From: Candidatus Beckwithbacteria bacterium GW2011_GWC1_49_16
GTDB taxonomy: Bacteria > Patescibacteriota > Microgenomatia > UBA1400 > CG1-02-47-37
DNA length: 64,000 nucleotides
Assembly: GCA_001029675.1 (NCBI GenBank)
Contig: CP011210.1
Coordinates: 948,891-1,012,890 of the forward strand
Direction: 5' to 3'
In this document: positions 13,640-32,960 of the stretch, one piece after another
Layout: each line of letters starts with the position of its first letter
How positions within the stretch are numbered: the stretch's first letter is position 1
Program-made: the position numbers and the translations under genes
Notes under the pieces: model-generated
Database searches by the model: none
The model's input: the letters and a program-made list of their open reading frames with translations, nothing else
What the model was told of the DNA's origin: nothing

Positions 13640-14785
13640 ATGATTATTAGAGACATTACCGCCAGCGACAGACTCAAGTTTAATGACGCGGTCGGGCATC
13701 CGCTGCAGGCTTTTGAGTGGGGGCAGTTCAGGCAGGAAACCGGAGTTAAAGTGATCAGGAAGGCCATTTTTGAAGGCGATAAATTGATCACTCCGGTTCA
13801 GGTGACCATTCATCAGCTGCCAAAAGTAAATTGGAAAATCGGCTATTTTCCTCGAGGGCCGATGCCGGACGAGGATCAGATGAAGTTATTAACCCAGATC
13901 GGCAAACAAGAAGGACTAATGATGATTAAACTCGAGCCGAATGTGGCAGCGGTGATAAATGACGGCGGGCCAAAAGTTCAGGCCTGGGAGACGGTAAGGA
14001 CGTTTTTGCGGTCTTTCGGGGCCAGGCCGGGAAGGTCGCTTTTTACCGATTATTCGTTTCAGCTGGATTTGACCGAGAGCGAGGAGAAACTTTTAAAAAA
14101 CATGCACTCTAAAACCCGCTACAACATCAGGCTGGCAGAAAGAAAGGGGGTCAAGGTGGCGGTGGATAATTCCCCGGCCAGCTTTGAATGGTTTCTGAAA
14201 CTTCTGTTTGAGCAAACGGTGGTGCGGCAGGGGTTTTATGCCCACACGCCGGATTATTTTAAAAAGCTGTGGGGGGTGTTGGCACCGGCCGGCATTGCCC
14301 ACCTGCTTCGGGCCTATGTGGGCGATAAAACTTTAGCGGTGTTTATGGTGTTTAAGTTTAATAACTGGTTGTATTACCCCTACGGAGCGTCGACGCGGGA
14401 AGAAAAGGAGCTAATGGCGCCAAACTTGGCTATGTGGGAAGCGATTCGCTTTGGCAAAAAGGAGGGGTGTAAGAAGTTTGACCTGTGGGGAGCGCTGTCG
14501 CCCACCCATAACAAAAATGATCCCTGGTACGGCTTTCACCGGTTTAAGGAAGGCTATGGAGGCAAGCTGGTCGGCTTTATCGGCAGCTACGATTTGGTGC
14601 TTGAACCCAAGAAATATTTGGCTTACCGGGCCGGTGACAGCTTACGCTGGGCATACCTTAGGACTGCGGCGGCGGCCAAAAGGATGCCGGGACAACTAAG
14701 CGGAGTTTTCTCTGATGTGCCAGAAAAGGTAGGTGAGGTCGCCAGCGACGCGATCAAGACTTTTGAAAAAGATGACCGATCTTAG
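13640..14785 (+). CDS. FemAB-family peptidoglycan peptide-bridge aminoacyltransferase
   Basis: Length and FemX/FemA-like architecture; the ...SKTRYNIR... core motif is repeated in the adjacent paralogue. Confidence 0.65.
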   Translation: MIIRDITASDRLKFNDAVGHPLQAFEWGQFRQETGVKVIRKAIFEGDKLITPVQVTIHQLPKVNWKIGYFPRGPMPDEDQMKLLTQIGKQEGLMMIKLEPNVAAVINDGGPKVQAWETVRTFLRSFGARPGRSLFTDYSFQLDLTESEEKLLKNMHSKTRYNIRLAERKGVKVAVDNSPASFEWFLKLLFEQTVVRQGFYAHTPDYFKKLWGVLAPAGIAHLLRAYVGDKTLAVFMVFKFNNWLYYPYGASTREEKELMAPNLAMWEAIRFGKKEGCKKFDLWGALSPTHNKNDPWYGFHRFKEGYGGKLVGFIGSYDLVLEPKKYLAYRAGDSLRWAYLRTAAAAKRMPGQLSGVFSDVPEKVGEVASDAIKTFEKDDRS

Positions 14786-15644
14786 GCAAGCTCGGGCTTA
14801 TTGGCGATACATGAAAAGCTTAGGCTGGCGGGTGGTCGACGGCGCCTTTGTCAAAAAACTCCCCTTTTTAGCTTTGAGCCTGGTCAAAATCCAAAGGCCG
14901 GAGCGTCAACCTAATCTTGCCGCGCTGAAAAAATTTCGCCCCATCTACATTAGCTACGAACCAGCGGTCAACCACAAACCCCCTGCCGGTTTCCGCCCGG
15001 GGTCACCCCTTTTGCCGTCAAGAACCATTTGGCTTGATTTGAGAAAGAGCCAGAAAAAACTTTTACAAGAAATGCGCCCCAAAACCCGCTACAATATTAA
15101 AAAATTACGGATTACGGATTACGGATTACGGATTACTCAAGGCAGTCAGCTAAGCGACGATCAACTCGCTGCTTTTTACCAAATTTACCGGGAAAACGCT
15201 AAAAAGCAAAGATTTTGGGGAGCAAGCTTTACTCAACTGAAGTCGTTGGCCACCTGTTTTGGTAAAAAGGCTTATTTAATCATTGCCAGACGGATGGCGC
15301 AGGCAGGGGAAAGCCGAAGGCAGGGTTTGGCTGGCAATGATGTCATTGGCGGGCTTTTAATTCTCGTTCACGACCGCGTGGCGTATTACTCCCACAACGC
15401 GGCCACCAATGAAGGGCGCAGGCTCTTTGTTCCCACCATCTTAACTTGGGAGGCGATTAAGCTAGCCAAAAAACTTGGCTGTCATACTTTTGACTTTGAG
15501 GGTATTGACGACCCTCGCTTCCCGGTCACCCGCAAATGGACGGGGTTTTCTCGCTTCAAAAAAAGCTTTGGCGGTAAGGAGGTCAACTACCCCCAGGCTT
15601 TGGTAAAATGGCAAGTACCGTTGTATCGATACAATAGAACTTAA
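14772..15644 (+). CDS. FemAB-family aminoacyltransferase, second copy
   Basis: Paralogous to the previous gene (RPKTRYNIKK vs SKTRYNIRL; FKKSFGG vs FKEGYGG). The start is taken at the internal Met MTDLRQ to avoid a 53-nt overlap. Contains the heptanucleotide repeat listed separately. Confidence 0.6.
   Translation: MTDLRQARAYWRYMKSLGWRVVDGAFVKKLPFLALSLVKIQRPERQPNLAALKKFRPIYISYEPAVNHKPPAGFRPGSPLLPSRTIWLDLRKSQKKLLQEMRPKTRYNIKKLRITDYGLRITQGSQLSDDQLAAFYQIYRENAKKQRFWGASFTQLKSLATCFGKKAYLIIARRMAQAGESRRQGLAGNDVIGGLLILVHDRVAYYSHNAATNEGRRLFVPTILTWEAIKLAKKLGCHTFDFEGIDDPRFPVTRKWTGFSRFKKSFGGKEVNYPQALVKWQVPLYRYNRT
15104..15136 (+). repeat. Tandem heptanucleotide repeat (ATTACGG)x4.7 inside the femAB-2 coding region
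   Basis: Direct reading: attacgg attacgg attacgg attacgg attac, translated as ...LRITDYGLRITQ... Confidence 0.85.
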
Positions 15645-16102
15645 TGATTGTGGCCTTGGAAAACATCAGGAGTCTTTATAACGTCGGGGCGATTTTAAGA
15701 AGCGCCAGCTTTTTTGGAGTGAGCGAGGTATTTTTGGTGGGGGTAACGGGGTCGAGGAAAATCGGCGGCCAAAGGTGGCTTCACGAAGGGTTAGCCAAAA
15801 CCGCTTTGGGAGCAGAATGGCAGTTACAGATCAAAATCTTGAAAGACAGCCAGAAATTGATTGATCTTGCCAAGAAGAACGGTTTGAAACTGGTAGTAGT
15901 GGAGCAAACGGCGGGGGCAACTCCCCTGTCAAGCTTCCGGCCGGGCAAAAACATGGTCTTGGTCTTTGGCAACGAGGTAACTGGCGTCAGTCAAAAAGTT
16001 TTGGCGGCGGCAGACAAGGTGGTAGAAATCCCCCGACGGGGCAAAAAAACTTCTTTAAATGTCGCCGTGGCGGCCGGAATTGTTTTAAGTCGATTGGGGT
16101 AG
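15644..16102 (+). CDS. SpoU/TrmH-family RNA 2'-O-methyltransferase
   Basis: SPOUT motifs: LYNVGAILRSA...LVFGNEVTGVS...SLNVAVAAGIVL. Confidence 0.8.
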   Translation: MIVALENIRSLYNVGAILRSASFFGVSEVFLVGVTGSRKIGGQRWLHEGLAKTALGAEWQLQIKILKDSQKLIDLAKKNGLKLVVVEQTAGATPLSSFRPGKNMVLVFGNEVTGVSQKVLAAADKVVEIPRRGKKTSLNVAVAAGIVLSRLG

Positions 16103-19100
16103 GTCCTGCCTGTCGGTAGGCAGACCCAGGGGCCAGCAGTGGCGGCGGTATTCGCAGCGAAGACAATGGCGTTGATAGTCGGTGGTGCGGGCAAAGCGGT
16201 GGCGGCGAATGGCTTTCATCGAAGACTTGATGGTGGTCATCAATTTGGCTACCTGATCGTCTGGAATGTCAAAGCTTCGTTTGACAAACTTGGTCTTTTT
16301 TAGGCCGGACTCGACAAAATCCAGCTCGGCTTCTAAGACTTTGTAGCTTAGGCGCGGATCAGCAGCAAAAAGAAGCCTGTAGAAAACCAGCTGACGAAAA
16401 AGGTCGCCCGAAGAAGTTTTGGTCTGGCCCAAAATGTCGTTAGCGCTTTTAGTCGGCCCGGTTTTGTAGTCGGTGACCTTGATGGTCTTTTTGGTTTTAT
16501 CGATTAAATCAACCCGGTCGATTTTGCCGGATAAGGGGATGTCGTCCAGGTAGGGCTTGGAGTAAAAACCGCCAAAGCGCAATTCTACGGCCAACGGCTT
16601 GGTCATCTCTTGATGGTAGTAGCGGTAGTAGGCGGCAAGGGCGTTGACGCCTTTATCAATAAAATCGGCGTGTCTCACCGGAGTTAAAACTTCACTACCT
16701 AAAGCTTTCTTAAACTGGCTTAATAAAAATTCCTTGGCGGGCAAGCGGTTGGTTTTGAGGAAGCGGCGGTAGAATATTTCCAAAGCCTTATGGACGGCGG
16801 TGCCAAAAGATAAGTAGGCTTGTTTGGCCCGGGGGACACGAATGAGGTTGTTTAGCTTGAATTTATAGCTGCAGGCCAGATAGGTGTTTAGGGCCGTAGC
16901 CGAGAGTTTAAAGTCTTTTAAAATGAGGTTGAGAAAATCACTTTCTTTGACGGACGGGGTTACCTGGGGCAGGGGTTTTAAGAGTTTGGTTAGGGCCTGT
17001 TTGGCCTGTTTAGTTAATTGGGGTGAGACGGGTTCAAGGTATTTTTGAGGAATTTCGGAAACAAACATGGAGGGGACGGCTTCTTTGCCGGTGACGGAAC
17101 CCGAGTAGCGGTCGGCGTAAGTAACGCAGACTTTTTTGCGGGCGCGGGTTAGCCCCACGTAAAACAGCCGCCTTTCGTCTTCATTTTTCTCTTTTTTTTG
17201 AAGATCGGTGAAGCTTAAGATCCCTTGGGGAAGTTTGATTAACTCCCGGGTGCGGTTGTTGCCCCATTTTTTATCGATAGCCCGATAAATAAAGACGTAG
17301 TCCCATTCCCTCCCCTTGGCTTTGTGGACGGTAGATAGGGTGACGGCGTTGGTTTTTATGTCCAGATCCTGCTCGACGACGCTCAAACGGTTTTGTTCCA
17401 TCAACTCAAGGGCTTTAATGAAACCAACCAAGTTGAGGCTGTGGTCGGCTTGGTTTAAACTTTTGACCTCGGCAAAAAGCGAGTTTAAACGGTTTAGCTT
17501 TTCGACGCTATCGGGCAAAGTCTCGAGCCAGCTTAAAAACCCCGACTGCTTTAAAACCATTTCGAAAAACTGGCTGAAGGTTTTTTCGGCGTCCAGCTTT
17601 CTCCAATCAGAAAGCTTGCCAATAAACTTAGTGATTTTGGAGCCGGATTTGAGCTTTAATTTTTTAAATTGGGGCGAGAGAATAAAGTCCACCAGATTGG
17701 TGTCGGCTTGGGCGACGGCCCGGGAAAGTTTTAAGATATCCAGGGCGTCTAATTTCAAAAACTGATAGTTTAACAGGGTGAATAAATCAAGGTCGTCACC
17801 CGCGCCTCCGCCGGCGTCGCTGATCACTTTCAAAAGGAGCAAAAACTGGTTTACTACCGGGTCGATTAAGACGTTGCCGCCGCCTTCTATGTCCAAACTC
17901 ACCCCAAACTTGGTGAGCATTTCTGCCAGCGTCCCGGCGTCGGCGTTGTGGCGAAAAAGAACGGCGATACTCTCTGGTTTGGTACCTGATTTGATCAGCC
18001 GGTCTATCTCCCGGGCGAGCCAAAAGGTTTCCAGAGTTTCCGAAGGAAATCTGACCAAAGACAGCTTTTGCTCTTTGAATTTACCTTGGGATTTTAATGT
18101 GGTGGTGGCTTTTTTGAGCTGGAGCTGGTTTTTTTTGATGACGGCGGCGGAGGCATCCAGGATGGTTTGAGTGGAACGGTAGTTTTGCGCCAGTTCAATC
18201 ACTTGGGCTTGGGGGAAAAGATTGTTGAAGGCGATAAAGTTCTCGGTCGAAGCTCCTTGGAAGCGAAAAATTGAATTATGAACTACCACATTGTTGGCTA
18301 CAAAATTGTGGCTAGGCGGTACTTCCAAGTCATAAACATTGATGGTTTTTATTTTCTTCTCGCGTTTAATGACTTTATCGTAGATAACCTTATGCCTTCT
18401 AACCACAGGGAGGTAGTTGCCAACTAAAATATTGCCTGCTTGCATTATTCTTGAGGGGCGGTGCTGTATCCTGGTAGTTCCTAAAGGCGCCTTAATATCA
18501 ATAATTCCAGGGAGTTTTCTCTCAAGCTTTTCGGCAATTTTATACAATTGAGAGAAATCAGTGTTATTTAGTCTGAAGCCTTTACCGATATTTTTATTTC
18601 TAAGCTTAAATCCGAGCTTGTTAAGTTTTTTTATGATTTTTTTGTTTGAAGTTTGGATTCGTAGCTCATGAAGAATGGAGGGGGATTGTAGTAGTCCTTT
18701 TTTATCATATTTAGAGCGATAGTTTCTTGAACACATAACAAGGTTAATTTTGATTCTCCCGTCCCCCAAAGTGGTTGCATCTCGAATATAATGGGGTTGA
18801 TTAAGATTTACCCCGAGATCTTGAGCAAGTATGGCAGCATTTTTTTCTGTATCAAACTCTTGATACAGCTTTTTAAGCCACTTGCCAGTAATTGCGTTAT
18901 TTCTTTCTTGAAAAACAACCGTTGGGATTTTGTAGGTAAGCGATAAAACCATTTCACGGTATCTGGCTTCTGCTTCTGATTTGTGTGCTGACAGGCCAAT
19001 AATTTTATCGGCTCCTGCCTCAATTTTTAGTCTTACTGAAAGGCTTCTTGTAATGCCTAAACGCCAACCCAAGCTTTTTTTATACATGAGGTAAACATAC

Positions 19101-20185
19101 CAGATGTTAGTCATTTCTCTGGGCGGGATAAAACAGAACATTTTATGATTATCTGTAGTAGCTATTTTTTGACCTGACTCGGTTGTAAAAGTAATGAGCC
19201 TAACTTTTCTTTTTTGCTTGAAAACCCTTTTAACTTTAGCGTAAGAGGTGTAGCCTTTACCTACCGCGGTTAAAACTTCATCTCCGGCTTTAATCTTTTC
19301 GATGTTTTTAAGGCCTGATTTGGTGTTGATTTTGATGCCCGCCGGCAAACACTGGTTCGGGTCTCCGACAACAAAGACATTGGCCTGATCGCCCCAGTAG
19401 GAAGCCAGAAGTTGTAAAACCTGGTTTTGAGCCGAGTTGGTATCCTGGTACTCGTCAACTAAAAAATAAAGCAGGCGCTCCTGATGGGTTCTTAATATGT
19501 TGGTATCCTGCTTAAAAGCGACTGCCACAAAATTGATCATGTCTTCAAAGTCATAGCGGCCTTTTTGGGCGAGTAACTTTTGGTAGGTTTGATAAACCCG
19601 AGCCAGGTCGTAGTTTTTGTCCAGCGTTTTTCTAGCGTTTAATAAGGCGGTGGCGGAAAGTTTGTTCTTCTCTTTTACCAACGAGGCTTTCTCTTTTTTG
19701 ACGATGGCGGCAAAAGTGATCGGGCTGACGGCTTCTCTTTTGAGGTCTTTTATTGATTCTATTAGGCTTGGGGTGTAGTAGAGGGGCGAGTTGGCCGGCT
19801 TGATAGCTTTAAAACGGCCGTGAGACAAAATCTGGTTAAAAATATCCACCCTTTCCAGTTCGGAAAGAGGCTCAAGATTCAAAGAAATGGCAAAGCGGTC
19901 GGCAAATTCCTGGATGACCGAGGAGCAAAAAGAGTGAAAAGTGGAGATATTAACGTAATAGGCCGGTTGGCCGATAGTGGCAAGTAGCCTCTGGCGCATC
20001 TCTCTGGCGCCGGATTCGGTAAAAGTTAAAGCCAAAATGCCGTCGGGGGGAGTGTCGGTTTTTTTCAAGATGTAAGCGATGCGCTCGGCGATGATCTGGG
20101 TTTTGCCGGTGCCGGGGCCGGCGATGACCATGACCGGGCCTTCGATGGTAGTGACGGCTTTAACTTGGGCCGGGTTTAGCTTCAT
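16085..20185 (-). CDS. UvrD-family helicase fused to a C-terminal Cas4/RecB-like PD-(D/E)xK nuclease with a four-Cys cluster, interrupted by an intein
   Basis: N-terminal Walker A AGPGTGKT and DEYQDTN. Motif III is split (VVGDPNQ | intein | SIFRFQGAS). The C-terminal nuclease carries Cys residues at YLACSYKF and CLRCEYRRHC. Confidence 0.8.
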   Translation of the reverse strand: MKLNPAQVKAVTTIEGPVMVIAGPGTGKTQIIAERIAYILKKTDTPPDGILALTFTESGAREMRQRLLATIGQPAYYVNISTFHSFCSSVIQEFADRFAISLNLEPLSELERVDIFNQILSHGRFKAIKPANSPLYYTPSLIESIKDLKREAVSPITFAAIVKKEKASLVKEKNKLSATALLNARKTLDKNYDLARVYQTYQKLLAQKGRYDFEDMINFVAVAFKQDTNILRTHQERLLYFLVDEYQDTNSAQNQVLQLLASYWGDQANVFVVGDPNQCLPAGIKINTKSGLKNIEKIKAGDEVLTAVGKGYTSYAKVKRVFKQKRKVRLITFTTESGQKIATTDNHKMFCFIPPREMTNIWYVYLMYKKSLGWRLGITRSLSVRLKIEAGADKIIGLSAHKSEAEARYREMVLSLTYKIPTVVFQERNNAITGKWLKKLYQEFDTEKNAAILAQDLGVNLNQPHYIRDATTLGDGRIKINLVMCSRNYRSKYDKKGLLQSPSILHELRIQTSNKKIIKKLNKLGFKLRNKNIGKGFRLNNTDFSQLYKIAEKLERKLPGIIDIKAPLGTTRIQHRPSRIMQAGNILVGNYLPVVRRHKVIYDKVIKREKKIKTINVYDLEVPPSHNFVANNVVVHNSIFRFQGASTENFIAFNNLFPQAQVIELAQNYRSTQTILDASAAVIKKNQLQLKKATTTLKSQGKFKEQKLSLVRFPSETLETFWLAREIDRLIKSGTKPESIAVLFRHNADAGTLAEMLTKFGVSLDIEGGGNVLIDPVVNQFLLLLKVISDAGGGAGDDLDLFTLLNYQFLKLDALDILKLSRAVAQADTNLVDFILSPQFKKLKLKSGSKITKFIGKLSDWRKLDAEKTFSQFFEMVLKQSGFLSWLETLPDSVEKLNRLNSLFAEVKSLNQADHSLNLVGFIKALELMEQNRLSVVEQDLDIKTNAVTLSTVHKAKGREWDYVFIYRAIDKKWGNNRTRELIKLPQGILSFTDLQKKEKNEDERRLFYVGLTRARKKVCVTYADRYSGSVTGKEAVPSMFVSEIPQKYLEPVSPQLTKQAKQALTKLLKPLPQVTPSVKESDFLNLILKDFKLSATALNTYLACSYKFKLNNLIRVPRAKQAYLSFGTAVHKALEIFYRRFLKTNRLPAKEFLLSQFKKALGSEVLTPVRHADFIDKGVNALAAYYRYYHQEMTKPLAVELRFGGFYSKPYLDDIPLSGKIDRVDLIDKTKKTIKVTDYKTGPTKSANDILGQTKTSSGDLFRQLVFYRLLFAADPRLSYKVLEAELDFVESGLKKTKFVKRSFDIPDDQVAKLMTTIKSSMKAIRRHRFARTTDYQRHCLRCEYRRHCWPLGLPTDRQDLPQST
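18275..19351 (-). mobile_element. Intein (~359 aa) inserted in helicase motif III of the UvrD-family protein
   Basis: Starts with Cys (CLPAGIKINTKSG...). Block B TxxH is TTDNH, ~67 aa in. Block F/G is NVYDLEVPPSHNFVANNVVVHN followed by the +1 Ser. Removing it restores VGDPNQSIFRFQGAS. Confidence 0.8.
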
Positions 20186-24041: not shown

Positions 24042-24737
24042 TTAAGTTTTATCCCATCTTTCTTTGTCATGATAAAGTTGCAGCCACTGGTTTAGGGTTA
24101 GAGTCGTGGGGCGGCGGGCAGAGGCAAAGCTTCTTTTAATAAAACTTTGATAGTTTTTTCTTTGAGACCAGGGCAATAGCGGTTTGTCGCGCTGTTGAAT
24201 CCGCAGCAAAACCGAGGCGACTTTAGGTTTGGGCACAAAATCGCGCCGGTGAAATTTGTGGACAATGGCAAAGCGAAACCAGGGACGCCAACAGACAGAA
24301 AACTGACCCCGGTAAGAAATCCCCGACCAGCGCTCGGCCACATCTTTTCTGACCACCAAGTAGCTATCTTGCGGCGGATTAATATCATTAAGTAATTTGC
24401 GAACAATTAAACCCTCAACATCAAATGGTAAATTAGCAAACACCTTGTAAGCTTCGTGGGGCAACTCCCAGGTTAAAAAGTCCTGATGAATAAGTTTTAA
24501 ATTGGGGGTGTTGGAGAAATCGCGGCTAAGCTGCTGATATAGGCTCTGATCCAACTCAACAGCAACCACCTGTTTGGCAACGTCCAACAACTCGGCAGTT
24601 ATGATCCCTTTGCCCGGACCAACTTCAATGACTAAATCGTTTTTACCAATAGAAGATTGCCGTACCAGTTGGTGGACCAACTGACGGTTATGAAGAAATC
24701 GCTGGGAAAGTTCCGGCCTCCGCCAAGACGTATACAT
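24042..24737 (-). CDS. rRNA adenine N6-methyltransferase family protein (KsgA/Erm-like)
   Basis: N-terminal SQRFLHN (cf. GQNFL/SQNFL), SAM motif VIEVGPGKGIITAEL, and NLPF (as ANLPFDV). Confidence 0.55.
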   Translation of the reverse strand: MYTSWRRPELSQRFLHNRQLVHQLVRQSSIGKNDLVIEVGPGKGIITAELLDVAKQVVAVELDQSLYQQLSRDFSNTPNLKLIHQDFLTWELPHEAYKVFANLPFDVEGLIVRKLLNDINPPQDSYLVVRKDVAERWSGISYRGQFSVCWRPWFRFAIVHKFHRRDFVPKPKVASVLLRIQQRDKPLLPWSQRKNYQSFIKRSFASARRPTTLTLNQWLQLYHDKERWDKT

Positions 24738-24838
24738 GGCGGCGGCGGAGCATCATGGTAATCATAGCGGTAGGATTATAACATAACCATCAGGATCATT
24801 AAGGCCTGATCCTATAACAGATGAGATATAATAGGAGA

Positions 24839-25678
24839 ATGTTGGTAGATACCCATAATCATCTTAACTTTGAGGCGTTCGATAAGGACTGGGAAGCGGC
24901 GGTGAATAGGGCCAGCGAGGCCGGGGTAGGAAAAATGATAGTGGTGGGGACGGATATTGATACCAGCCTTAAAGCGATTGCCATGGCCAAACAAAGAAAA
25001 ACGCTTTGGGCCACGGTCGGATTTCATCCCCACCACGTTAAAGCCTTAATTAAACTCCCCTACGCCAGGGTACAGCTGGCGCAAATTACCGACCAGTTGA
25101 AGAAAATGGCCCGAGGTAAACAGGTGGTGGCGGTGGGAGAATGCGGCCTGGATTATCACACTTACCAAAACAGTCGGCATAAACACCCGGACAACGGCCG
25201 GGACTGGGAGAAACTGAAAGACTTACAAAAGCAGATATTTGGGATGCAGATAGAGTTGGCCCGAGAATTAAAGCTGCCTTTGGTGATTCACAACCGGGAA
25301 GCGGACATGGAGGTGTTGGATGCGATTGACCATTTTTGCAAAAAAGACGGCAATGTGCCCCGTGGGGTGCTCCATTGCATTTCGGGCAGCAGTGAGTTTT
25401 TAGAAAAAGGCCTTAACATGGGTTTTTATATCGGGGTTGACGGCAACGTCACTTATGACGGCAAGGTTAAGGCCTTGGCGAAAAAGATTCCTTTGGAGCG
25501 GCTGGTGGTCGAGACCGACTCGCCGTACCTCGCCCCTAAACCGCGACGACGGTTGAGGAATGAGCCGGCCAATGTTAAAATCGTGGCCGAGTTTCTGGCG
25601 AAACTTAAAAATATATCCAGAGAAAAACTAGAGCAGGCAACCACGAAAAACGCCGAAAGGTTATTTAATTTACACTAA
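24839..25678 (+). CDS. tatD: TatD family metal-dependent hydrolase/DNase
   Basis: MLVDTHNHL start and HxH...E...H...H...D arrangement. The ORF-track start at 24821 is probably an upstream extension. Confidence 0.8.
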   Translation: MLVDTHNHLNFEAFDKDWEAAVNRASEAGVGKMIVVGTDIDTSLKAIAMAKQRKTLWATVGFHPHHVKALIKLPYARVQLAQITDQLKKMARGKQVVAVGECGLDYHTYQNSRHKHPDNGRDWEKLKDLQKQIFGMQIELARELKLPLVIHNREADMEVLDAIDHFCKKDGNVPRGVLHCISGSSEFLEKGLNMGFYIGVDGNVTYDGKVKALAKKIPLERLVVETDSPYLAPKPRRRLRNEPANVKIVAEFLAKLKNISREKLEQATTKNAERLFNLH

Positions 25679-25680
25679 TC

Positions 25681-27171
25681 ATGGTGAAAGAGTATTTGAA
25701 TAAAAATCAAAAGCGGGTGATGCGGACTTTGGAGATTCTGCCGGGAGCCATCTCTTGGTCTTTGATTATTTTCCCCATCTGGGGGTCGCTGGTGATACCG
25801 GTGGCGGTCGCTTACTACATCATTGCCTTTGACGTTTACTGGCTGTATCGGTCAATCTGGACGGCGACATTGTCTTTAATTGCCCACTACCGGTTGCGGG
25901 CGGCACAGCAGTTTGATTGGTTAAACGAAGCCCAGTCGTTTCTTGATTGGGAAAGGATCCACCACATCGTGGTGATTCCCACTTACCAAGAACCCTTGTA
26001 TATTTTAAAGCGGACTTTGACCGGGCTTTCCCAGCAGACTTTTCCCAGAGAAAACCTGACGGTAGTGGTGTCTTTTGAAGAGCGGGAAGGAGAGGCGGCC
26101 ACAAAGATGGGGAGAATTTTAAAACGGGAGTTTGGTGAGATTTTTGGCAATTTTATCATCACTTTTCACCCTGATTTGCCGGGAGAGGTTAAAGGCAAGT
26201 CTTCAAACACTGCCTGGGCGGCGCGGCTAGCTAAAAAGAAGCTAATTGACGAACAGGAACGGGACATCAATTATGTGACGATTACCTCAAACGACGCCGA
26301 CGCCTTGCTTCACAAGCAATACTTTTCCTATTTGACTTTCAAGTTTTTGGACGACCCGGACAGATATGAGAAGATTTGGCAGTCGGCGATCCAGTTTTAC
26401 AACAACATCTGGCGGCTGCCGGCCGTCACCCGAGCCTACAACCGGGTGTCTTCGGTAGTTCAGACCGGGATTTTGATGAGAAAAGACAGGTTGATGAATT
26501 TTTCCACCTACACTTTGAGCTTGAAGCTGGTAGATAAGGTGGGCTACTGGGATACGGACGTCATTCCCGAAGACTACCGGATGTTCTTTAAAACCTTTTA
26601 TGCCACCCGGGGTAAGGTCGAAGTCGAACCGATATTTTTGCCGGCGTTTTGCGACGCGGCCGAGTCGACGACGTTTTGGAAGACGATGAAAAACCAGTAT
26701 AACCAAGTCAAACGCTGGGCTTGGGGGGTGTCGGACGACGCTTATATTATTTACAAATGGCTGACGGTGCCCAACATGCCGTTTTGGGAAAAGTCGATCC
26801 GGGCCATGTATGTAATTAAGGATCACGTCTTGTGGCCGGTGAACTGGTTTGCCATCACCTTGGGGGCCAACATTCCACCGCTACTTAATAAAGATTTCAA
26901 CCGGACGATTATCGGCAAGACCCTGCCCCAGGTGTCGTCGGGGATTTTGACTTTGGCCTTGGTAGCACTGGCGGCGATCATTTTTATTGACTGGCAGCAA
27001 AAACCCAAGGCGCCGGAAGGAACTCCCTGGTGGAAGCGGTTTTTTGCGCCGTTTGAGTTTGTGTTACTGCCCATCGTCGGCTTTTTCTTCACCGCGCTTC
27101 CCGGGCTAGACGCCCACACCCGGCTGATGCTTGGCCGCTACATCGAGTACAAGGTGACGGAGAAGGTTTAG
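25681..27171 (+). CDS. Processive family-2 glycosyltransferase (membrane-embedded, QxxRW motif)
   Basis: N-terminal TM helices, a GT-A domain, QVKRWAWG (the Q(Q/R)xRW motif of cellulose/chitin-synthase-like enzymes) and C-terminal TM helices. Confidence 0.6.
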   Translation: MVKEYLNKNQKRVMRTLEILPGAISWSLIIFPIWGSLVIPVAVAYYIIAFDVYWLYRSIWTATLSLIAHYRLRAAQQFDWLNEAQSFLDWERIHHIVVIPTYQEPLYILKRTLTGLSQQTFPRENLTVVVSFEEREGEAATKMGRILKREFGEIFGNFIITFHPDLPGEVKGKSSNTAWAARLAKKKLIDEQERDINYVTITSNDADALLHKQYFSYLTFKFLDDPDRYEKIWQSAIQFYNNIWRLPAVTRAYNRVSSVVQTGILMRKDRLMNFSTYTLSLKLVDKVGYWDTDVIPEDYRMFFKTFYATRGKVEVEPIFLPAFCDAAESTTFWKTMKNQYNQVKRWAWGVSDDAYIIYKWLTVPNMPFWEKSIRAMYVIKDHVLWPVNWFAITLGANIPPLLNKDFNRTIIGKTLPQVSSGILTLALVALAAIIFIDWQQKPKAPEGTPWWKRFFAPFEFVLLPIVGFFFTALPGLDAHTRLMLGRYIEYKVTEKV

Positions 27172-27189
27172 GGCTGATACAATAAAAGC

Positions 27190-28701
27190 ATGCTTAAACG
27201 CGTCTGGCGCTGGGTGAAGAAAAACGAGGCTTTGGCCTGGTTAGTGGTTTTCTCGGTGGTGTTGCGGATTACCTCCTGGTTTGAGCCTTACTGGTACGGC
27301 GACGAGGGTATTTATTTAGTTTTAGGCCAGGCTTTGCGGCGCGGGCTGGTGTTTTACCGCGACATCCACGACAACAAGCCGCCTTTACTTTACCTTTTGG
27401 CGGCCGTCGCCGGGGGCGTCACCTGGTTTAGGGTGATACTGACCGTCTGGTTTGGGGCGACAGTGGTGGTATTTTACCGGTTGATGGAAAAGCTTTTTCC
27501 CAAAAACAAGTTAGCCTGGTATTTGTCGACCATAACCATGATTTTGGGGACGACGGCCACCGAGGGCAACATTGCCAACGCGGAGATATTTATGATCGGG
27601 CCGATTATGCTCGCCATGCTAATGGCCTTGCGGCAAACTCCCGCCTCCGCCAAGGCTTCGGCGGGCAAGCGAAACTGGCTCTTGGTGGGACTTTTGATGG
27701 CGGTGGCGTTTTTATTTAAAGCGCCGGCGGGGGCTGATTTGGCGGCACTGCTCATTTGGTTGGTAGCCTTTACCCGACTGGGTAAAAAAGCTTGGCTCAA
27801 AGCCGCGCTGATCTTGGTAGGATTTTTACTGCCGCTGGCGGCCACCTTGGTTTACTACGCTCAAGTGGGAGGACTGGAGCGTTACGTGCGGTCGGCGCTG
27901 CTTCAGAACATCGGCTATCTTTCATCCTGGCAGACCGGAGAACACTCGGCTTCGGGGTTTTCCTCTCAATCGGGGCTAATGCTTCGGAGCGGGGCCTTGG
28001 CAGTTTTGATCGGGGGATTTTTTTGGCTTAAAAAACGATTTAAGCTGGAAACCAAGTTGAGCCTGATGGTGGTGTGGTTTTTTGCGGCCTTGTGGGCGGC
28101 GTTACTCTCCGAAAGGCCGTATCCTCATTATCTTATCCAGCCGCTAGTGCCGGCGGCAGTGCTGGTGAGCTTTTTGCTTTTTGGCAAAAGAAAGTTGGTG
28201 CGGTTGGTGGTGGTGACGGCGGCTTTGGTGGCAGCGGTAAGCTTCTATCAAATTCGCTTTTGGCAGTATCCGGTGGCGGCTTACTACCAAAATTTTATTG
28301 GGTATGCCTTAGGGCAAAAAAGCCGGGAGGCTTACTTTGACTTTTTTGACTGGCGGGTGAACCAGACTTATCGGGTAGCAGAGTTGGTTAAGAAATATAC
28401 CACGAGCGACGAGCCGATTTTTGTCTGGGGCGACGAGCCGTATATTTATGCGCTTTCCGAAAGGCTGCCGGTAGGCCGCTATACGGTCGCCTACCACATC
28501 TATGATTTTGACGGCTTTGAGGAGACGCTTACCGCCTTGGACGAGAAACGGCCGAGCCTGGTGGTGATGATGGAGTATGAGACACGGCCGTTTGAGGGGT
28601 TAACCGCGAGGCTGGCTACAGATTATGTCTTGGTAGACAAAGTCGACCAGGCCCTGATCTACATGCGGGTTGACGGGGTCACCCGTTCGCCAGGCTTATA
28701 A
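27190..28701 (+). CDS. GT-C fold glycosyltransferase, ArnT/PMT-like
   Basis: YWYGDEGIY DE motif after TM1 and ~11 TM helices plus a C-terminal soluble domain. Confidence 0.55.
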   Translation: MLKRVWRWVKKNEALAWLVVFSVVLRITSWFEPYWYGDEGIYLVLGQALRRGLVFYRDIHDNKPPLLYLLAAVAGGVTWFRVILTVWFGATVVVFYRLMEKLFPKNKLAWYLSTITMILGTTATEGNIANAEIFMIGPIMLAMLMALRQTPASAKASAGKRNWLLVGLLMAVAFLFKAPAGADLAALLIWLVAFTRLGKKAWLKAALILVGFLLPLAATLVYYAQVGGLERYVRSALLQNIGYLSSWQTGEHSASGFSSQSGLMLRSGALAVLIGGFFWLKKRFKLETKLSLMVVWFFAALWAALLSERPYPHYLIQPLVPAAVLVSFLLFGKRKLVRLVVVTAALVAAVSFYQIRFWQYPVAAYYQNFIGYALGQKSREAYFDFFDWRVNQTYRVAELVKKYTTSDEPIFVWGDEPYIYALSERLPVGRYTVAYHIYDFDGFEETLTALDEKRPSLVVMMEYETRPFEGLTARLATDYVLVDKVDQALIYMRVDGVTRSPGL

Positions 28702-28703
28702 AT

Positions 28704-29114
28704 ATGAAAAAGCCACGGCAGATGAGTTTTTTCTCTAACACCGGCGCGGGTTTTGGTGAGGTAAAACTTCAGATCGATACTCTCGCGGCCGACCCGGCGG
28801 CAAAAATTGGCCTAAGGATCGCCTTTTTGGCCTTAGGGGTGGAATTTTTGGTCTTGGCTTTGTCTTGGAGCCGGCTGCCTCCCGAAGTGCCGCTGTGGTA
28901 CAGCCGGCCTTACGGGGAAAGCCAACTGACGGGGGCGTGGTGGCTATGGTTGCTTCCAGGGGTGGGTTTGTTTATAAACTTGGTGTCGATCAGATGGGCG
29001 GGGGTGGTGGTGGCAACAGAAAAACTCTTGGCCCAAATCTTGGTGTGGGTGGGGGCGATGACGGCGGTAATGGGGTTGGCGGCAGTGAGCAAAATTGTGG
29101 CCTTGATGTTATGA
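28704..29114 (+). CDS. Small 3-4 TM membrane protein (possible flippase-type partner)
   Basis: Hydrophobicity pattern only. Overlaps the next gene start with an ATGA. Confidence 0.3.
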   Translation: MKKPRQMSFFSNTGAGFGEVKLQIDTLAADPAAKIGLRIAFLALGVEFLVLALSWSRLPPEVPLWYSRPYGESQLTGAWWLWLLPGVGLFINLVSIRWAGVVVATEKLLAQILVWVGAMTAVMGLAAVSKIVALML

Positions 29115-30205
29115 ACTTGGTTTATTTAATTAAAGTGACCGGGTTAGCGGCGATACTTTCCGCCATAATTACTCCGATAATAATCAGGCTGTATCGGCGT
29201 CTCAATTGGCTCGATGATCCTAAAAAGGCGACTCACCCTAAAGTGATTCACGCTTACCCGGTCCCCCGCGGGGGCGGAGTGGCGATATTTTTGGCGATAG
29301 CGGTTTCAAGCTTGACCTTTTTACCGGTAGACAAGCACCTTTTGGGCATTCTTTTGGGGGCAGGGGTTTTAGCCGTGGTGGGATTGGCGGACGATGTCAA
29401 AAATGTTAATCCTTATTGGCGGCTTTTATGGGGAGTTTTGGCGGCGGGGCTGGTGGTGGGAGCGGGCATCGGCATTCCCTATATTTCCAACCCCTTCCGC
29501 GCCAACGCGGTGATTTTGCTGTCTAGCCCGCAAATCCCGATTTACCTTTTAGGGAAACTCCGGACCATCTGGATTTGGGCGGACGTGTTTGCGCTTATTT
29601 GGATCGTGGGAGTGATGAACTTTGTCAACTGGTCAAAGGGGCTTGACGGGCAGCTGCCGGGGATCGTGGTGGTAGCGGCGACGGTAATTGGGGTTTTAAG
29701 CTTAAGGTTTGTCGACGACGTCACCCAGTGGCCGGTAATTGTTCTGGCGTTTATTTTAGCCGGGGCTTACCTGGGTTTTTTGCCTTGGAATTTTTATCCG
29801 CAAAAAATCATGCCCGGTTATGGCGGCGGGGCTTTGGCGGGTTATTTTTTGGCGGTGTTGGCGATTCTGTCTGGAGCCAAGGTAGCTACAGCCATTCTGG
29901 TTTTGGGGGTGCCCTTGATGGACGCAGTTTACACTGTGGTTAGAAGGGTGGCTGCCGGCCGCTCTCCGGTTTGGGGAGACAGGGGACATCTGCATCATAA
30001 ACTCATGGATTTGGGTTGGGGGAAAAGGCGGGTAGCGCTGTTTTACTGGCTGGTGACGGCAATATTGGGGCTTTCGGCTTTGCGATTGAATAGCACAGCC
30101 AAGGCCTATACAATGGTGCTATTGGCAGTGGTTTTAGGAGGATTTTTATTATGGCTGAATACGGCTACTTACTTCTTAAAGAAGCCCGGCCGCGACAGTG
30201 GCTGA
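29111..30205 (+). CDS. Polyprenyl-phosphate N-acetylhexosamine-1-phosphate transferase (WecA/MraY family)
   Basis: ...GLADDVKN... and ...VMNFVNWSKGLDGQLPG... (cf. NAxNxxDGLDGL), ~10 TM helices. The start is at MNLVYLIKV (ATG 29111) within the longer 28865 ORF. Confidence 0.7.
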   Translation: MNLVYLIKVTGLAAILSAIITPIIIRLYRRLNWLDDPKKATHPKVIHAYPVPRGGGVAIFLAIAVSSLTFLPVDKHLLGILLGAGVLAVVGLADDVKNVNPYWRLLWGVLAAGLVVGAGIGIPYISNPFRANAVILLSSPQIPIYLLGKLRTIWIWADVFALIWIVGVMNFVNWSKGLDGQLPGIVVVAATVIGVLSLRFVDDVTQWPVIVLAFILAGAYLGFLPWNFYPQKIMPGYGGGALAGYFLAVLAILSGAKVATAILVLGVPLMDAVYTVVRRVAAGRSPVWGDRGHLHHKLMDLGWGKRRVALFYWLVTAILGLSALRLNSTAKAYTMVLLAVVLGGFLLWLNTATYFLKKPGRDSG

Positions 30206-31077
30206 AAAACCTGGCGCTTTATACCGGGCTGGTGTTTTCCGGCTGGCTGTTTATAGCGGAAAAGTTTTGGACGGTGACGGCGGCTTTTTTGATTTTTTCC
30301 TTGATGACGGGCTCTGTCTACATCCTGAACGACATTATCGATTTGGAGTCGGACAGAAAACATCCGTTTAAGAAAAAGCGCCCCGTCGCTTCCGGCAAGC
30401 TGCCGATGCCGGTGGCGCTGTTTTTTAGCCTGATGGGGTTGGTGGCTGCTTTCTATCTTGGCTGGAGTCTGTCTTTTTTTCTGTTTTTAGGACTGCTGGC
30501 CTACCTGACTTTACAGCTGGTTTACAGCGGCTGGTTGAAACATATACCGATCATGGACGTGATGCTCATCTCCGCCGGTTTTATCGTCAGGGTGTATACC
30601 GGGGCGGCGATGATCGGGGCGCATATCAACGTTTGGCTGCTACTTTGCATCATTTCTTTTTCGCTGTTTCTGGCTATTGGCAAAAGAAGAAGCGAGCTGA
30701 CACTTTTACAAGGCCAAACTGCCAGCCGCAGGGTTTTGGGCCGCTACCCGGAAAAGTTACTCGACGTTTATACGGCCATGTTTGCCAATACTACCTGGGT
30801 GACTTACGCGCTTTTCACCTTCATGTTCCCGCCGTTTGCTTTTCGGGGGCGGGTGTTGACTTTACTGGCTGATCTGCCCCGGACCTTTAGGTCAGAAAAG
30901 TGGCTGATGGTGACGATTCCTGTGGTCATCTACGGGGTGATGCGCTACCTCCATTTAATTTACGAGAAAAACCAAGGCGAGTCGCCAGAGCGGATTTTGA
31001 CTGACGACCGGCCGATGCTGATCACTGTCGCTCTCTGGGGTTTAATGGTGGTGGGGATTTTGTACGGCCTGGGGTAA
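30151..31077 (+). CDS. UbiA-family prenyl-phosphate phosphoribosyltransferase (decaprenyl-phosphate phosphoribosyltransferase-like)
   Basis: LKEARPRQWLKNL start, the Asp-rich motif YILNDIIDLESDRKH (NDxxDxxxD), and ~8 TM helices. Confidence 0.65.
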   Translation: MAEYGYLLLKEARPRQWLKNLALYTGLVFSGWLFIAEKFWTVTAAFLIFSLMTGSVYILNDIIDLESDRKHPFKKKRPVASGKLPMPVALFFSLMGLVAAFYLGWSLSFFLFLGLLAYLTLQLVYSGWLKHIPIMDVMLISAGFIVRVYTGAAMIGAHINVWLLLCIISFSLFLAIGKRRSELTLLQGQTASRRVLGRYPEKLLDVYTAMFANTTWVTYALFTFMFPPFAFRGRVLTLLADLPRTFRSEKWLMVTIPVVIYGVMRYLHLIYEKNQGESPERILTDDRPMLITVALWGLMVVGILYGLG

Positions 31078-31079
31078 AT

Positions 31080-32006
31080 TTACTCGTACTTCTCGGCGTA
31101 TTTGCCGGTAATCCAGCAGCTCTTACCCGATTCATACTCGACTTGATACCAGCCGGACTGCTCATCCAATAAAGGAAATTTGTCACCGTGGTCTAAAGCG
31201 GCGACGATGGTCTCGTCCCCGCCGCCGGTAGACGGTTCGCTCCTGCAGTTGACGTAACCGTCGGCTTCGTTATCAATGACCACGTAAGGTAAATCCGGAT
31301 CGCCAGCGCCTGAAGTAGGTGAGGCTTTGGGAGAGGCAGTGGTTTTAGGGCTGGGGCTGGCTTTGGGGCTGGGTGAGGGTGAGACTTGGGCAGAGGGAGT
31401 AGCTTCCTGGTCGTCCTCGGCGCCGGAAACGGTATCTCCCTCCCGAGCCAGCTGAACTGAGGCAATCAGTTTGTAACCCTTGACGGTTTTGGCTTTGATG
31501 CTTCTTTCCCGGTAACCGGGGGAAGAAACGACCAAGACGTGGTCGCCTTCGGAAACAGAATCGATAGACAAGGGGGCAAAGCCTCTGGGTTCGCCGTCGA
31601 GGTTGACCACGGCTCCGTCGGGGGTGGTAACGACGGCGATCGAGGTAGCGTTTTTGTCAGCTAAGGCTTCAAAAGACAAAATTTCGCCGCTTGATTCTTC
31701 CTCGGTTAGGCCCAGTTCGCGCTTGACGACGGTCAGAATGCCAGGGGTGAGGTTAACCCGACCCTCCCAGACGGTTAAGGCCTGACCAGAGGACTCGGGG
31801 ACGATTTTCAAGACGTATTCGCCGGGCTTTAGTTTTTCGTTGTAGTAAGGAGTTTGACCTAAATGCTCGCCATCAAGAAAGACGGTGGCTTTAGGGGAGG
31901 CTTCGACGGAAAGGGCGGCTTTTTTACGGGAAGATAACAAACTTCTCACCCCAAAAATGGCTCCGCCGATGAGCAGGATGATTAAAACCCAGGCAAAGCG
32001 TTTCAT
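31080..32006 (-). CDS. Secreted/anchored PEGA-domain protein with (SP/SPK)n linker and a C-terminal SH3-like domain
   Basis: Two PEGA-like motifs (VFLDGEHLGQTPY, VVNLDGEPRGFAPL) and an SPSPSPKASPSPK linker. The start is taken at MKRFAWVL. Confidence 0.55.
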   Translation of the reverse strand: MKRFAWVLIILLIGGAIFGVRSLLSSRKKAALSVEASPKATVFLDGEHLGQTPYYNEKLKPGEYVLKIVPESSGQALTVWEGRVNLTPGILTVVKRELGLTEEESSGEILSFEALADKNATSIAVVTTPDGAVVNLDGEPRGFAPLSIDSVSEGDHVLVVSSPGYRERSIKAKTVKGYKLIASVQLAREGDTVSGAEDDQEATPSAQVSPSPSPKASPSPKTTASPKASPTSGAGDPDLPYVVIDNEADGYVNCRSEPSTGGGDETIVAALDHGDKFPLLDEQSGWYQVEYESGKSCWITGKYAEKYE

Positions 32007-32047
32007 CAGAGGAGATTGTAGCAAAAAATGGTATAATTATCAAACTA

Positions 32048-32159: not shown

Positions 32160-32190
32160 TCCTCCCGAAAATGGGAGGATTTTTTGTTTG
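32160..32190 (+). terminator. Rho-independent terminator downstream of tRNA-Cys
   Basis: TCCTCCC-gaaaat-GGGAGGA hairpin followed by TTTTTTGTTT. Confidence 0.55.
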
Positions 32191-32207
32191 GGCCGCATGG
32201 CCCGATC

Positions 32208-32960
32208 ATGAAACGAAAAGAATTTTCGCTTGTAGTTTCGACACTATCGCTAGGTAAGGCAACCACGAGACTTACGGTCAACCTCATCAAGTTTATGGGT
32301 TGGTCGTTGGTGTGGGGAGTTACCATGCTTCCCTATCAAATCTTCCGGGTGTTTTTACCTAAGCGTGGCCCGGGCAGACCCGGAAGCCACCCGATCTCGA
32401 AGTTTTTCCGCAGTGCCTTTGAGAGTAAAAGGGCCCGAAAATTTGTTGGGGCCGGCTTGGCCATGGTCTTGATGCTATCTAACCTGGTGGGTAATATCCT
32501 GGCGGTAGAAGGGACACAGGCGGTTGACCCGACCCTGATTTCTACCCCGGAAACCCAGGTAGTGACCCAAACCACTCTAGAGACGCCTTTAGAGGGGGTG
32601 GTCGCCCAGGGCTTTAACGGGCTCCATAGAGGAGTAGATGTCTTGGCGCCGATAGGCACGCCGATTGAACCGGTAGCCGACGGGGTGGTGAAGGAAGCCA
32701 GCTTTGGCAGATTGGGTTGGGGCAATACCATCGTGGTCGAGCACGAGGGTGGTTTGGCTTCGCGTTATGCCCACTTGAGCCAAATCAAGGTGGTGGCGGG
32801 AGAAAAAGTCAGCAAAGACCAAGTGATCGGTACCGTGGGAATGACCGGGTGGACTACTGGCCCCCACCTTCACTTAGAAATGTACCAAAACGGCCGGGCG
32901 ATTAATCCGCTTACTGTACTGCCGACGTTTCAAAGCCAGCTTCTGGCTCTGGGGCAGTAA
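32208..32960 (+). CDS. M23 family metallopeptidase (peptidoglycan endopeptidase-like)
   Basis: HRGVDVLAPIGTPI...GWGNTIVVEHEGG...GMTGWTTGPHLHLEM are the M23 HxxxD...HxH motifs. The start is taken at MKRKEF. Confidence 0.75.
   Translation: MKRKEFSLVVSTLSLGKATTRLTVNLIKFMGWSLVWGVTMLPYQIFRVFLPKRGPGRPGSHPISKFFRSAFESKRARKFVGAGLAMVLMLSNLVGNILAVEGTQAVDPTLISTPETQVVTQTTLETPLEGVVAQGFNGLHRGVDVLAPIGTPIEPVADGVVKEASFGRLGWGNTIVVEHEGGLASRYAHLSQIKVVAGEKVSKDQVIGTVGMTGWTTGPHLHLEMYQNGRAINPLTVLPTFQSQLLALGQ

Follow-up and report, generated by a model that had tools for sequence, protein, structure and literature searches.

A conserved five-gene membrane cluster in Candidatus Beckwithbacteria with the components of a probable pentofuranose-bearing envelope glycan pathway

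The gene cluster

We examined a 64-kb stretch of DNA from an ultrasmall groundwater member of Candidatus Beckwithbacteria (Microgenomates, within the Patescibacteria or Candidate Phyla Radiation, CPR), hereafter the window, and all coordinates are window positions unless a locus of a related genome is named. At 25681-31077 the listing of open reading frames (ORFs) gives five close-packed genes for membrane enzymes on the plus strand (Table 1). They encode, in order, a membrane-integrated glycosyltransferase of family GT2, a glycosyltransferase of the GT-C class, a small DUF1648-like protein with three transmembrane (TM) helices, a polyprenyl-phosphate N-acetylhexosamine (HexNAc)-1-phosphate transferase (PNPT), and a UbiA-family protein that we assign as a polyprenyl-phosphate 5-phosphoribosyltransferase (PPPRS). 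Successive junctions measure +18, +2, -4 and -55 nt. We start the PNPT gene at ATG 29111, which together with the overlapping stop codon of the small gene reads ATGA, and reject the TTG at 28865 given by the ORF lister; the PPPRS gene has its own GGAGGA Shine-Dalgarno sequence besides its 55-nt overlap with the PNPT gene. Upstream, 2 nt separate the gene of a TatD-family hydrolase from the GT2 start, and the transcription unit possibly begins with this hydrolase gene. A promoter and terminator scan, which is uninformative for CPR, found no strong internal terminator in the cluster. Judged by these junctions, the five genes most likely form one operon. The window matches a contig from a groundwater metagenome (NCBI GCA_001774295.1, MEZO01000006.1; ENA ERZ909590), and identical copies of the five proteins are found in public records (AKM79799-AKM79803). 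Since every cluster protein has thousands of homologues, and most of 80 species-level genomes show the same gene order, the cluster is not a product of chance.

An earlier note on this DNA, made from the sequence alone, had described five consecutive same-strand genes with overlapping or abutting boundaries as one operon, and both the junctions (-55 to +18 nt) and the synteny agree. It had named a processive membrane GT2 with the motif QVKRWAWG, an ArnT/PMT-like GT-C with YGDE, a small protein with three to four TM helices, a WecA/MraY-family polyprenyl-phosphate HexNAc-1-phosphate transferase, and a UbiA-family enzyme with NDxxDxxxD of the decaprenyl-phosphate phosphoribosyltransferase (DPPRS) type. 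All of these motifs are present in the proteins stated, and profile and fold classification recovered the class of each protein, the small protein having three TM helices and the processive type of the GT2 holding at the level of motifs and predicted fold. The note had also seen no DprE1- or DprE2-type genes in the window, which agrees with our results; here, as for every window-wide absence below, we relied on Pfam lists covering ~1.8-62 kb of the 64 kb.

Table 1. Positions of the cluster genes, their neighbours and other features of the window
Feature	Position	Strand	Remarks
Membrane GT2	25681-27171	+	496 aa
GT-C glycosyltransferase	27190-28701	+	503 aa
Small 3-TM DUF1648-like protein	28704-29114	+	136 aa
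PNPT	29111-30205	+	364 aa
UbiA-family PPPRS	30151-31077	+	308 aa
TatD-family metal-dependent hydrolase	24821-25678	+	PF01026, 259 bits
PEGA/SH3_3 protein	31080-32024	-	conserved in 47/80 loci
M23 peptidoglycan endopeptidase	32184-32960	+	present in 23/80 loci
PMT-family GT-C	6830-8197	-	second envelope-glycan locus
Membrane protein	8067-9545	+	weak DUF6798 match; second envelope-glycan locus
Weak GT87-like membrane protein	9538-10836	-	23.1 bits, cutoff 25
LCP (LytR-CpsA-Psr) protein	10752-11819	-	PF03816, 97.8 bits; outside the cluster
Two FemAB-family genes	13640-15644		follow second envelope-glycan locus
UvrD-helicase/PDDEXK nuclease	16085-20185	-	1366 aa, AddA-like, with intein-splicing domain
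rRNA adenine dimethylase-family gene	24042-24737	-	231 aa, Erm-like
DUF4012 fusion	55671-58769	-	1032 aa, SDR epimerase-type N-terminus
dnaA	61293-62696		

The UbiA-family protein as a phosphoribosyltransferase

The UbiA-family protein matched PF01040 at 72.2 bits (cutoff 34.2) and carries the motifs NDIIDLESD (residues 60-68, nt 30328-30354) and GKRRSE (nt 30679-30696). Its best NCBIfam matches were three DPPRS models, at 224.7, 186.7 and 134.1 bits, whereas models of quinone, haem, chlorophyll and archaeal-lipid prenyltransferases reached at most 47.5 bits, so that the score on the leading DPPRS model (NF008977) lies ~177 bits above that on any prenyltransferase model; by these profiles the protein does not group with the menaquinone and ubiquinone prenyltransferases. 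Its only sequence matches in the PDB were two entries of Mycobacterium tuberculosis Rv3806c (8j8j, E 2.8e-30). In the cryo-EM analysis of Rv3806c (PMC10994848), the pyrophosphate is contacted by R22, K87, R90, K143 and Y138, the magnesium ion by N73 and D77, the ribose by N73 and Q135, the 5'-phosphate by K28, Y70 and Y157, and the lipid phosphate by K28, Y157 and K191, and ordinary UbiA prenyltransferases do not share the residues that bind the phosphoribose (PMC10994848).

Indeed, 13 of the 15 substrate positions that we compared are identical in the window protein (R22, K28, Y70, N73, D74, D77, D81, K87, R90, Q135, Y138, K143 and K191 in Rv3806c numbering). The two changes are Y157 to F, which also occurs in some mycobacteria (PMC10994848), and K208 to R. 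Across 81 CPR homologues, 11 of the 15 positions are invariant. Eleven of the contacts, namely R22, K28, Y70, N73, D77, K87, R90, Q135, Y138, K143 and K191, are all identical in the window protein; ten of them are invariant among the 81 homologues and Q135 is kept in 66. With 308 residues, the protein has no extra domain. We thus assign it, from profiles and conserved residues, as a PPPRS and not a quinone prenyltransferase, and on the same basis the public label '4-hydroxybenzoate polyprenyltransferase-like' is mis-specific. Some patescibacterial homologues are already labelled decaprenyl-phosphate phosphoribosyltransferase by the NCBI Prokaryotic Genome Annotation Pipeline (PGAP).

The initiating transferase

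PF00953 (Glycos_transf_4) recognised the PNPT at 91.4 bits. Among the NCBIfam models it scored 72.5 bits on wecA, 47.4 on mraY and 69.8 on MraY_archaea, all below their cutoffs, and the wecA model exceeded the mraY model in the window protein and in all eight orthologues compared (69-92 against 35-60 bits). The DD (29390-29395) and HLHH (29987-29998) motifs are present, and D94/D95, N170 with D179-G180, and H293-L-H-H296 are kept in at least 95% of 70 orthologues; HIHH is the loop-V motif of WecA implicated in UDP-GlcNAc recognition (PMC5222938). With all catalytic motifs of the WecA/MraY superfamily in place, the protein reads by sequence as a WecA-leaning PNPT rather than as MraY.

These data bear on one rival explanation, in which the UbiA-family protein is an aromatic prenyltransferase of quinone, haem or chlorophyll type, or the PNPT is the cell's own MraY, or both, and the cluster is no pentose-glycan system. 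It can point to the public label of the former and to the best PDB sequence matches of the latter, which are MraY chains. Against this stand the wide gap between DPPRS and prenyltransferase scores, the conservation of the residues that bind phosphoribosyl pyrophosphate (PRPP), a score of 47 bits on an mraY model whose cutoff is 192, the higher wecA score in nine of nine proteins, and an invariant HLHH motif in place of the HHH-type loop of MraY; moreover, peptidoglycan pathways are reported to be essentially complete in CPR genomes (PMC7143001). We regard this explanation as close to refuted, with scarcely any probability left to it.

The two membrane glycosyltransferases

Pfam gave a Glyco_trans_2_3 match of 31.6 bits for the GT2. 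In the PDB neither its sequence nor a profile of it found anything significant, and we turned to fold comparison. The AlphaFold2 model (pLDDT, the predicted local distance difference test, 89.6) was matched best by Foldseek to Chlorella virus hyaluronan synthase (E 5.6e-10, TM-score up to 0.57) and BcsA, while GlfT2 came only 46th (E 5e-5, over the GT-A domain only). The motifs DAD (26293-26301), PEDY (26566-26577) and QVKRWAWG (residues 342-349, nt 26704-26727) are present, and D165, D205-A-D207, E297-D298 and Q342-x-x-R345-W346 are invariant among homologues. The protein would thus be a membrane-integrated enzyme like BcsA and hyaluronan synthase (HAS), of processive type by motifs and predicted fold. 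Its extreme C-terminus, E-Y490-K-V-T-E-K495-V (YKVTEK at 27148-27165), is conserved, with Y490, V492, T493 and K495 invariant or nearly so, yet is predicted to be disordered. In BcsA and CesA, the FxVTxK motif of the gating loop contacts UDP (PMC10592267). The tail fits this pattern with Y in place of F, although it lies at the extreme C-terminus and not between interface helix 3 and the next TM helix; we take it as a lead, not a demonstration, towards UDP-hexose use and a beta-glucan-type activity.

The second glycosyltransferase gave only weak Pfam matches (PMT_2, 19.6 bits; DUF6427, 22.9 bits) and no PDB matches, whether searched as a single sequence or as a 35-member profile. Its AlphaFold2 model, built with 48 homologues, is confident (pLDDT 91.0, predicted TM-score 0.91), and the top 21 Foldseek matches in the PDB were all GT-C enzymes. 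Among these 21 were AglB, ArnT (TM-score 0.55), yeast oligosaccharyltransferase, Pmt4, DPY19, AftA, AftB, ALG3 and ALG6. ALG3, PIG-M and ArnT have the more similar folds, AftA, AftB and AftD the less similar ones. The YGDE motif occupies residues 36-39 (nt 27295-27306), with D38-E39 invariant where the first extracytoplasmic loop begins, and the C-terminus forms an alpha/beta domain. On the strength of the model we assign the protein to the GT-C fold class. A precomputed Pfam label, 'Competence-induced Ccs4 N', led nowhere, as Ccs4 is itself without known function.

The small membrane protein

Between the GT-C and PNPT genes lies the gene of the small protein, whose three TM helices are accompanied by a conserved loop, LPPxVPLWYSxPWGxxQLA (28875-28916). 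The window copy has no Pfam match. UniRef names the protein a DUF1648 domain protein, and DUF1648 weakly matches 5 of 33 orthologues (best E 5e-4); in the same 33, Pfam recovered neither GtrA nor SMR nor PAP2 at E <= 1. The small gene is translationally coupled to the PNPT gene, and the gap between the two is 10 nt or less in 66 of 67 loci. Because it is the only cluster member without an assigned role, we consider the small protein a transport candidate, either as a partner of another component or as a flippase.

Conservation across the Patescibacteria

We scanned one genome per GTDB species for synteny, which yielded 80 loci of ~20 kb, all from Patescibacteria and of Beckwithbacteria, Gottesmanbacteria, Woesebacteria, Pacebacteria, Microgenomates or Paceibacterota type, and clustered all of their ORFs. 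The PNPT gene adjoins the PPPRS gene in 75 loci, and the small gene lies there in 66, the GT2 gene in 63 and a gene in the GT-C slot in 70; contig ends account for many of the absences. At least 60-75 related species retain the gene set, and the cluster is strongly syntenic. Thus neither of the two refuting cases named in the earlier note, grouping of the UbiA-family protein with menaquinone or ubiquinone prenyltransferases and lack of synteny in relatives, was borne out. PNPT and PPPRS genes overlap in 45 of 69 loci. Upstream of the GT2, TatD is found in 59 of the 80 loci, usually after the methionyl-tRNA synthetase gene (MetRS, in 50), a pairing that we take to be a generally conserved housekeeping adjacency. 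On the 3' side a convergent gene, kept in 47 of the 80, encodes a protein that has a membrane anchor, two PEGA domains, an SH3_3 domain and a linker rich in Ser and Pro.

The slot between GT2 and small protein is filled by the window-type GT-C in 39 loci and by a ~444-aa protein in 31, the two sharing the motifs [YW]x-DE and PPLxY (RDE and EPPLYY in the Gottesmanbacteria type). About ten Gottesmanbacteria-type loci carry an additional soluble GT2 of 231 aa between TatD and the membrane GT2 (PF00535, 121.8 bits; 5039-5731 in locus L073), which could be an adaptor glycosyltransferase or a polyprenyl-phosphate-sugar synthase. In some Pacebacteria, a PMT-type or PTPS-related GT-C-like gene directly follows the PPPRS gene. 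Three loci hold a PPPRS paralogue (46-48% identity) with an epimerase of the short-chain dehydrogenase/reductase (SDR) type (PF01370) directly upstream on the same strand (L048, 8640-10942; L055, 2715-4871; L070, 2768-4832). The pair adjoins PBP2-MreC-MreB, and in L055 also a Wzy_C+TPR protein. A tblastn search of the window with the paralogue-linked epimerase found no match. The only SDR epimerase-type domain in the window (PF01370/GDP_Man_Dehyd), at the N-terminus of the DUF4012 fusion (Table 1), is unlinked to the cluster.

Such conservation matters for a second rival, namely that separate pathways merely lie together: the GT2 would make an exopolysaccharide or glycolipid from a UDP-sugar, the PNPT would prime another wall polymer, and PPPRS and GT-C would act on yet another target, the genes sharing no more than their regulation. 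Synthases of HAS and BcsA type normally have no need of a polyprenyl primer, and GT2 and GT-C are lost or relocated in a few loci (L014, L025 and L038) in which small-PNPT-PPPRS or small-PNPT stay together. Gene order and spacing are kept, however, across lineages whose protein identities fall to 44-50%, in genomes of ~1 Mb, and the genes are translationally coupled, and we hold this explanation to be very unlikely.

A third possibility is protein glycosylation, in which the GT-C, like TfpW of Pseudomonas aeruginosa, would use the PPPRS-derived donor to add a pentofuranose in O-linkage to type IV pilins or other surface proteins, while PNPT and GT2 serve another glycan. The DE motif in loop 1 is like that of protein O-mannosyltransferases, Pmt4 and Pmt1-2 are strong structural matches, genes for PilN and PilO lie within the window, and the Pseudomonas aeruginosa precedent is cited in PMC11127046. 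In 60-75 genomes, however, the cluster stands beside PNPT and GT2 and not beside pilin genes; its neighbours, the PEGA/SH3 protein and an M23 peptidase, are wall-related; and a separate, bona fide PMT-family GT-C is encoded elsewhere in the window (Table 1). This reading appears decidedly unlikely.

Proposed pathway

We propose that the operon probably encodes a compact set of enzymes, all of them membrane-bound, that together assemble an envelope glycoconjugate dependent on polyprenyl phosphate and bearing a pentofuranose. What profiles, conserved residues and predicted folds establish are the enzyme classes and their active sites; the four enzymes would then act on one product. Because the PRPP and polyprenyl-phosphate site of Rv3806c is present, PPPRS should convert PRPP and polyprenyl phosphate into polyprenyl-phosphate-5-phosphoribofuranose, at the cytoplasmic face. 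PNPT would make polyprenyl-diphosphate-HexNAc, the usual primer of wall-linked glycans, from which the GT2 would build up, and possibly export, a backbone in the manner of the synthase-dependent WecA/WbbF route. Further factors, among which the DUF1648-like protein is a candidate, would dephosphorylate the PPPRS product and flip it. Enzymes of the GT-C class use donors linked to polyprenyl phosphate or diphosphate at the outer face, and the GT-C of the cluster would add the pentofuranose to the glycan once it is exported. Attachment of the product to peptidoglycan may then fall to an LCP ligase from another part of the genome; the window holds one LCP protein (Table 1), a candidate for such ligation of a polyprenyl-diphosphate-linked glycan. 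As the cluster has no linked epimerase, D-ribofuranose would be the simplest choice of sugar, donated by polyprenyl-phosphate-ribofuranose.

Several observations weigh against this proposal. The PPPRS falls ~9 bits short of the NF008977 cutoff of 234 bits, and the PNPT scores far below the cutoffs of wecA (TIGR02380, 326 bits) and mraY (192 bits). PcManGT (6yv7), which is non-processive and whose fold is a minimal cellulose-synthase-like one, is also among the GT2 matches, and because only about four clear, strongly hydrophobic TM helices are seen in the GT2, a channel-forming processive role is not assured for it. The second type of GT-C-slot protein, in ~31 genomes of Gottesmanbacteria type, resembles the window GT-C in position, size and motifs only, and hhalign of the two types was weak (probability 7%, E 0.005). 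In the small protein the invariant residues are Pro, Ser and Leu only, with no conserved residues of catalytic type, and a fusion search against 1.84 billion representatives, which gave 613 homologue clusters, revealed no informative fusion among the best 150, all of them stand-alone proteins of 75-178 aa. Neither the cluster nor the window holds a recognised flippase (MATE, GtrA, SMR or Wzx), a 5'-phosphoribose phosphatase (of HAD type, HAD-PRP, or PAP2) or a PRPP synthetase. TatD was considered as the missing phosphatase and rejected as unsupported, its pairing with MetRS being a conserved housekeeping adjacency. Nothing directly ties the products of GT2 and PNPT to the acceptor of the GT-C, and the co-location could reflect two pathways. 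We know of no biochemical or glycan-composition data for any CPR organism.

Because the operon has neither a phosphoribose phosphatase nor a known flippase, a variant may be envisaged in which the GT-C transfers 5-phosphoribofuranose itself from polyprenyl-phosphate-ribose-5-phosphate, giving an anionic wall polymer specific to Microgenomates, with the DUF1648-like protein as a new escort or flippase coupled to PNPT. We consider this variant a long shot. If it is true, such a polymer would supply teichoic-acid-like charge without teichoic acid genes.

Relation to known systems

The proposed assembly line for a pentofuranose-bearing glycan is best compared with two described schemes. Extracytoplasmic pentofuranose glycosylation is a three-component pathway in which a PPPRS works together with a flippase and a GT-C, epimerases being optional (Kelly et al., PNAS 2024, PMC11127046), and a synthase-dependent route builds the undecaprenyl-phosphate (Und-P)-linked O-antigen of Salmonella Borreze O:54 with WecA, WbbE and WbbF (PMC2841628). 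The former (PMC11127046), and not the arabinogalactan or 4-amino-4-deoxy-L-arabinose (Ara4N) pathways, is the nearest described system, and the best-supported reading of the operon combines its PPPRS/GT-C scheme with a WecA-primed, synthase-type GT2 route.

The ORF15-ORF14-ORF12 module of Citrobacter youngae O1/O2 is alike in its UbiA-type, PRPP-using PPPRS with a neighbouring GT-C, and in our set PPPRS and GT-C co-occur in ~70 of 80 loci. The Beckwithbacteria cluster has no linked epimerase, which would make ribofuranose the default as in serotype O1; the paralogue-epimerase pairs of three relatives recall instead ORF13 of serotype O2, which turns Und-P-ribose into Und-P-xylose. The differences are that the Beckwithbacteria PPPRS is without the HAD-type phosphoribose phosphatase domain; that the cluster has a DUF1648-like 3-TM protein and no MATE, GtrA or SMR flippase; that PPPRS and GT-C share one operon with PNPT and a synthase-type GT2, whereas in C. 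youngae they are accessory to an O-antigen locus; and that the locus is a core one, conserved across the clade, and not a serotype-variable module. With the O:54 system, the cluster has in common a WecA-type initiator and a HasA/BcsA-like GT2, the likeness to WbbF being one of class. In that route the WbbF-type GT2 both polymerises and translocates. The cluster lacks a WbbE-like adaptor glycosyltransferase, Gottesmanbacteria loci adding the soluble 231-aa GT2, and a PPPRS/GT-C module is added to the route here.

The earlier note had likened the cluster to mycobacterial arabinogalactan synthesis, and the analogy extends to the enzymatic logic alone. The mycobacterial components are WecA, the DPPRS Rv3806c, Rv3807c, DprE1/E2, GlfT1/2, the Aft/Emb GT-Cs and Lcp1. 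A WecA-type primer enzyme, a DPPRS orthologue, a GT-C, a GT2 and an LCP protein in the genome are common to the cluster and to the arabinogalactan and lipoarabinomannan (LAM) pathways, the substrate site of PPPRS matches mycobacterial DPPRS at 13 of 15 positions, and GT2, small membrane protein, UbiA and GT-C are, we presume, clustered likewise at Rv3805c-Rv3808c. On the other hand, the GT2 sits in the membrane and resembles BcsA and HAS, not GlfT2; the window shows no UDP-galactopyranose mutase (Glf), DprE1/E2 or PAP2 phosphatase, PAP2 motifs being absent from the small protein as well; and AftA, AftB and AftD resemble the GT-C less in structure than ALG3, PIG-M and ArnT do.

This comparison also bears on a true arabinan-type pathway, in which epimerases (DprE1/DprE2-like or other) elsewhere in the genome would produce polyprenyl-phosphate-arabinofuranose (or xylofuranose) from polyprenyl-phosphate-ribose, and the GT-C would transfer arabinofuranose or xylofuranose, as happens in the synthesis of mycobacterial arabinogalactan and LAM. 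The shared component logic, the presence of AftA, AftB and AftD among the structural matches of the GT-C, and the three related genomes with a PPPRS paralogue and upstream SDR, which show that pentose epimerisation is used in the clade, would fit. Neither a DprE1-type FAD oxidase/ALO nor a DprE2-like gene was found in the window, however, nor was one syntenic in the 80 loci, and the missing tblastn match for the paralogue-linked SDR, the greater nearness of the GT-C to non-Aft enzymes and the dissimilarity of the GT2 to GlfT2 all count against it; we judge an arabinan pathway unlikely. The glycosylation of Gram-positive teichoic acids (CsbB/GtrB, GtcA and YfhO) and the Ara4N pathway of lipid A modification in LPS (ArnC, ArnE-F and ArnT) differ in their donor synthase, which in the GtrB/ArnC type is a GT2 using a nucleotide sugar, unlike the UbiA-type, PRPP-using phosphoribosyltransferase of the cluster, and the small protein is not detectably GtrA-like or SMR-like.

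Other features of the window

A second envelope-glycan locus, which includes the LCP protein, occupies 6830-11819 (Table 1). The 231-aa dimethylase gene lies between MetRS and TatD and scores 213 bits on the NCBIfam model of Erm 23S rRNA methyltransferases (cutoff 212) and 150 bits on KsgA/RsmA (cutoff 171). Nearly all 2-kb bins have a positive GC skew, with a cumulative rise across 1-64000, and rnpA and yidC precede dnaA on the minus strand; because of this trend and this gene group, the window is taken to adjoin the replication origin.

Conclusion

To conclude, the parts of this cluster are individually of known kinds, and their arrangement departs from the described systems in three ways: PPPRS and GT-C are joined with PNPT and a BcsA/HAS-like GT2; a DUF1648-like protein is included; and no recognisable phosphatase, flippase or epimerase is present. 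Full-text searches of the literature found no paper on this operon, or on any PPPRS pathway or DprE1 in CPR/Patescibacteria. The analysis corrects the public annotation of these genes ('4-hydroxybenzoate polyprenyltransferase-like' and 'hypothetical protein'), relates a CPR enzyme to a mycobacterial drug target, Rv3806c, whose substrate site it matches, and flags the DUF1648-type small protein as a candidate for the missing component of lipid-linked pentose pathways. Members of the CPR/Patescibacteria have genomes of ~1 Mb with very little biosynthetic capacity, and to our knowledge almost nothing is known of the chemistry of their envelopes, which mediate episymbiotic attachment to hosts. The retention of operon order across lineages of Beckwithbacteria, Gottesmanbacteria, Woesebacteria and Pacebacteria type predicts that a pentofuranose-bearing surface glycopolymer may be conserved throughout this clade.

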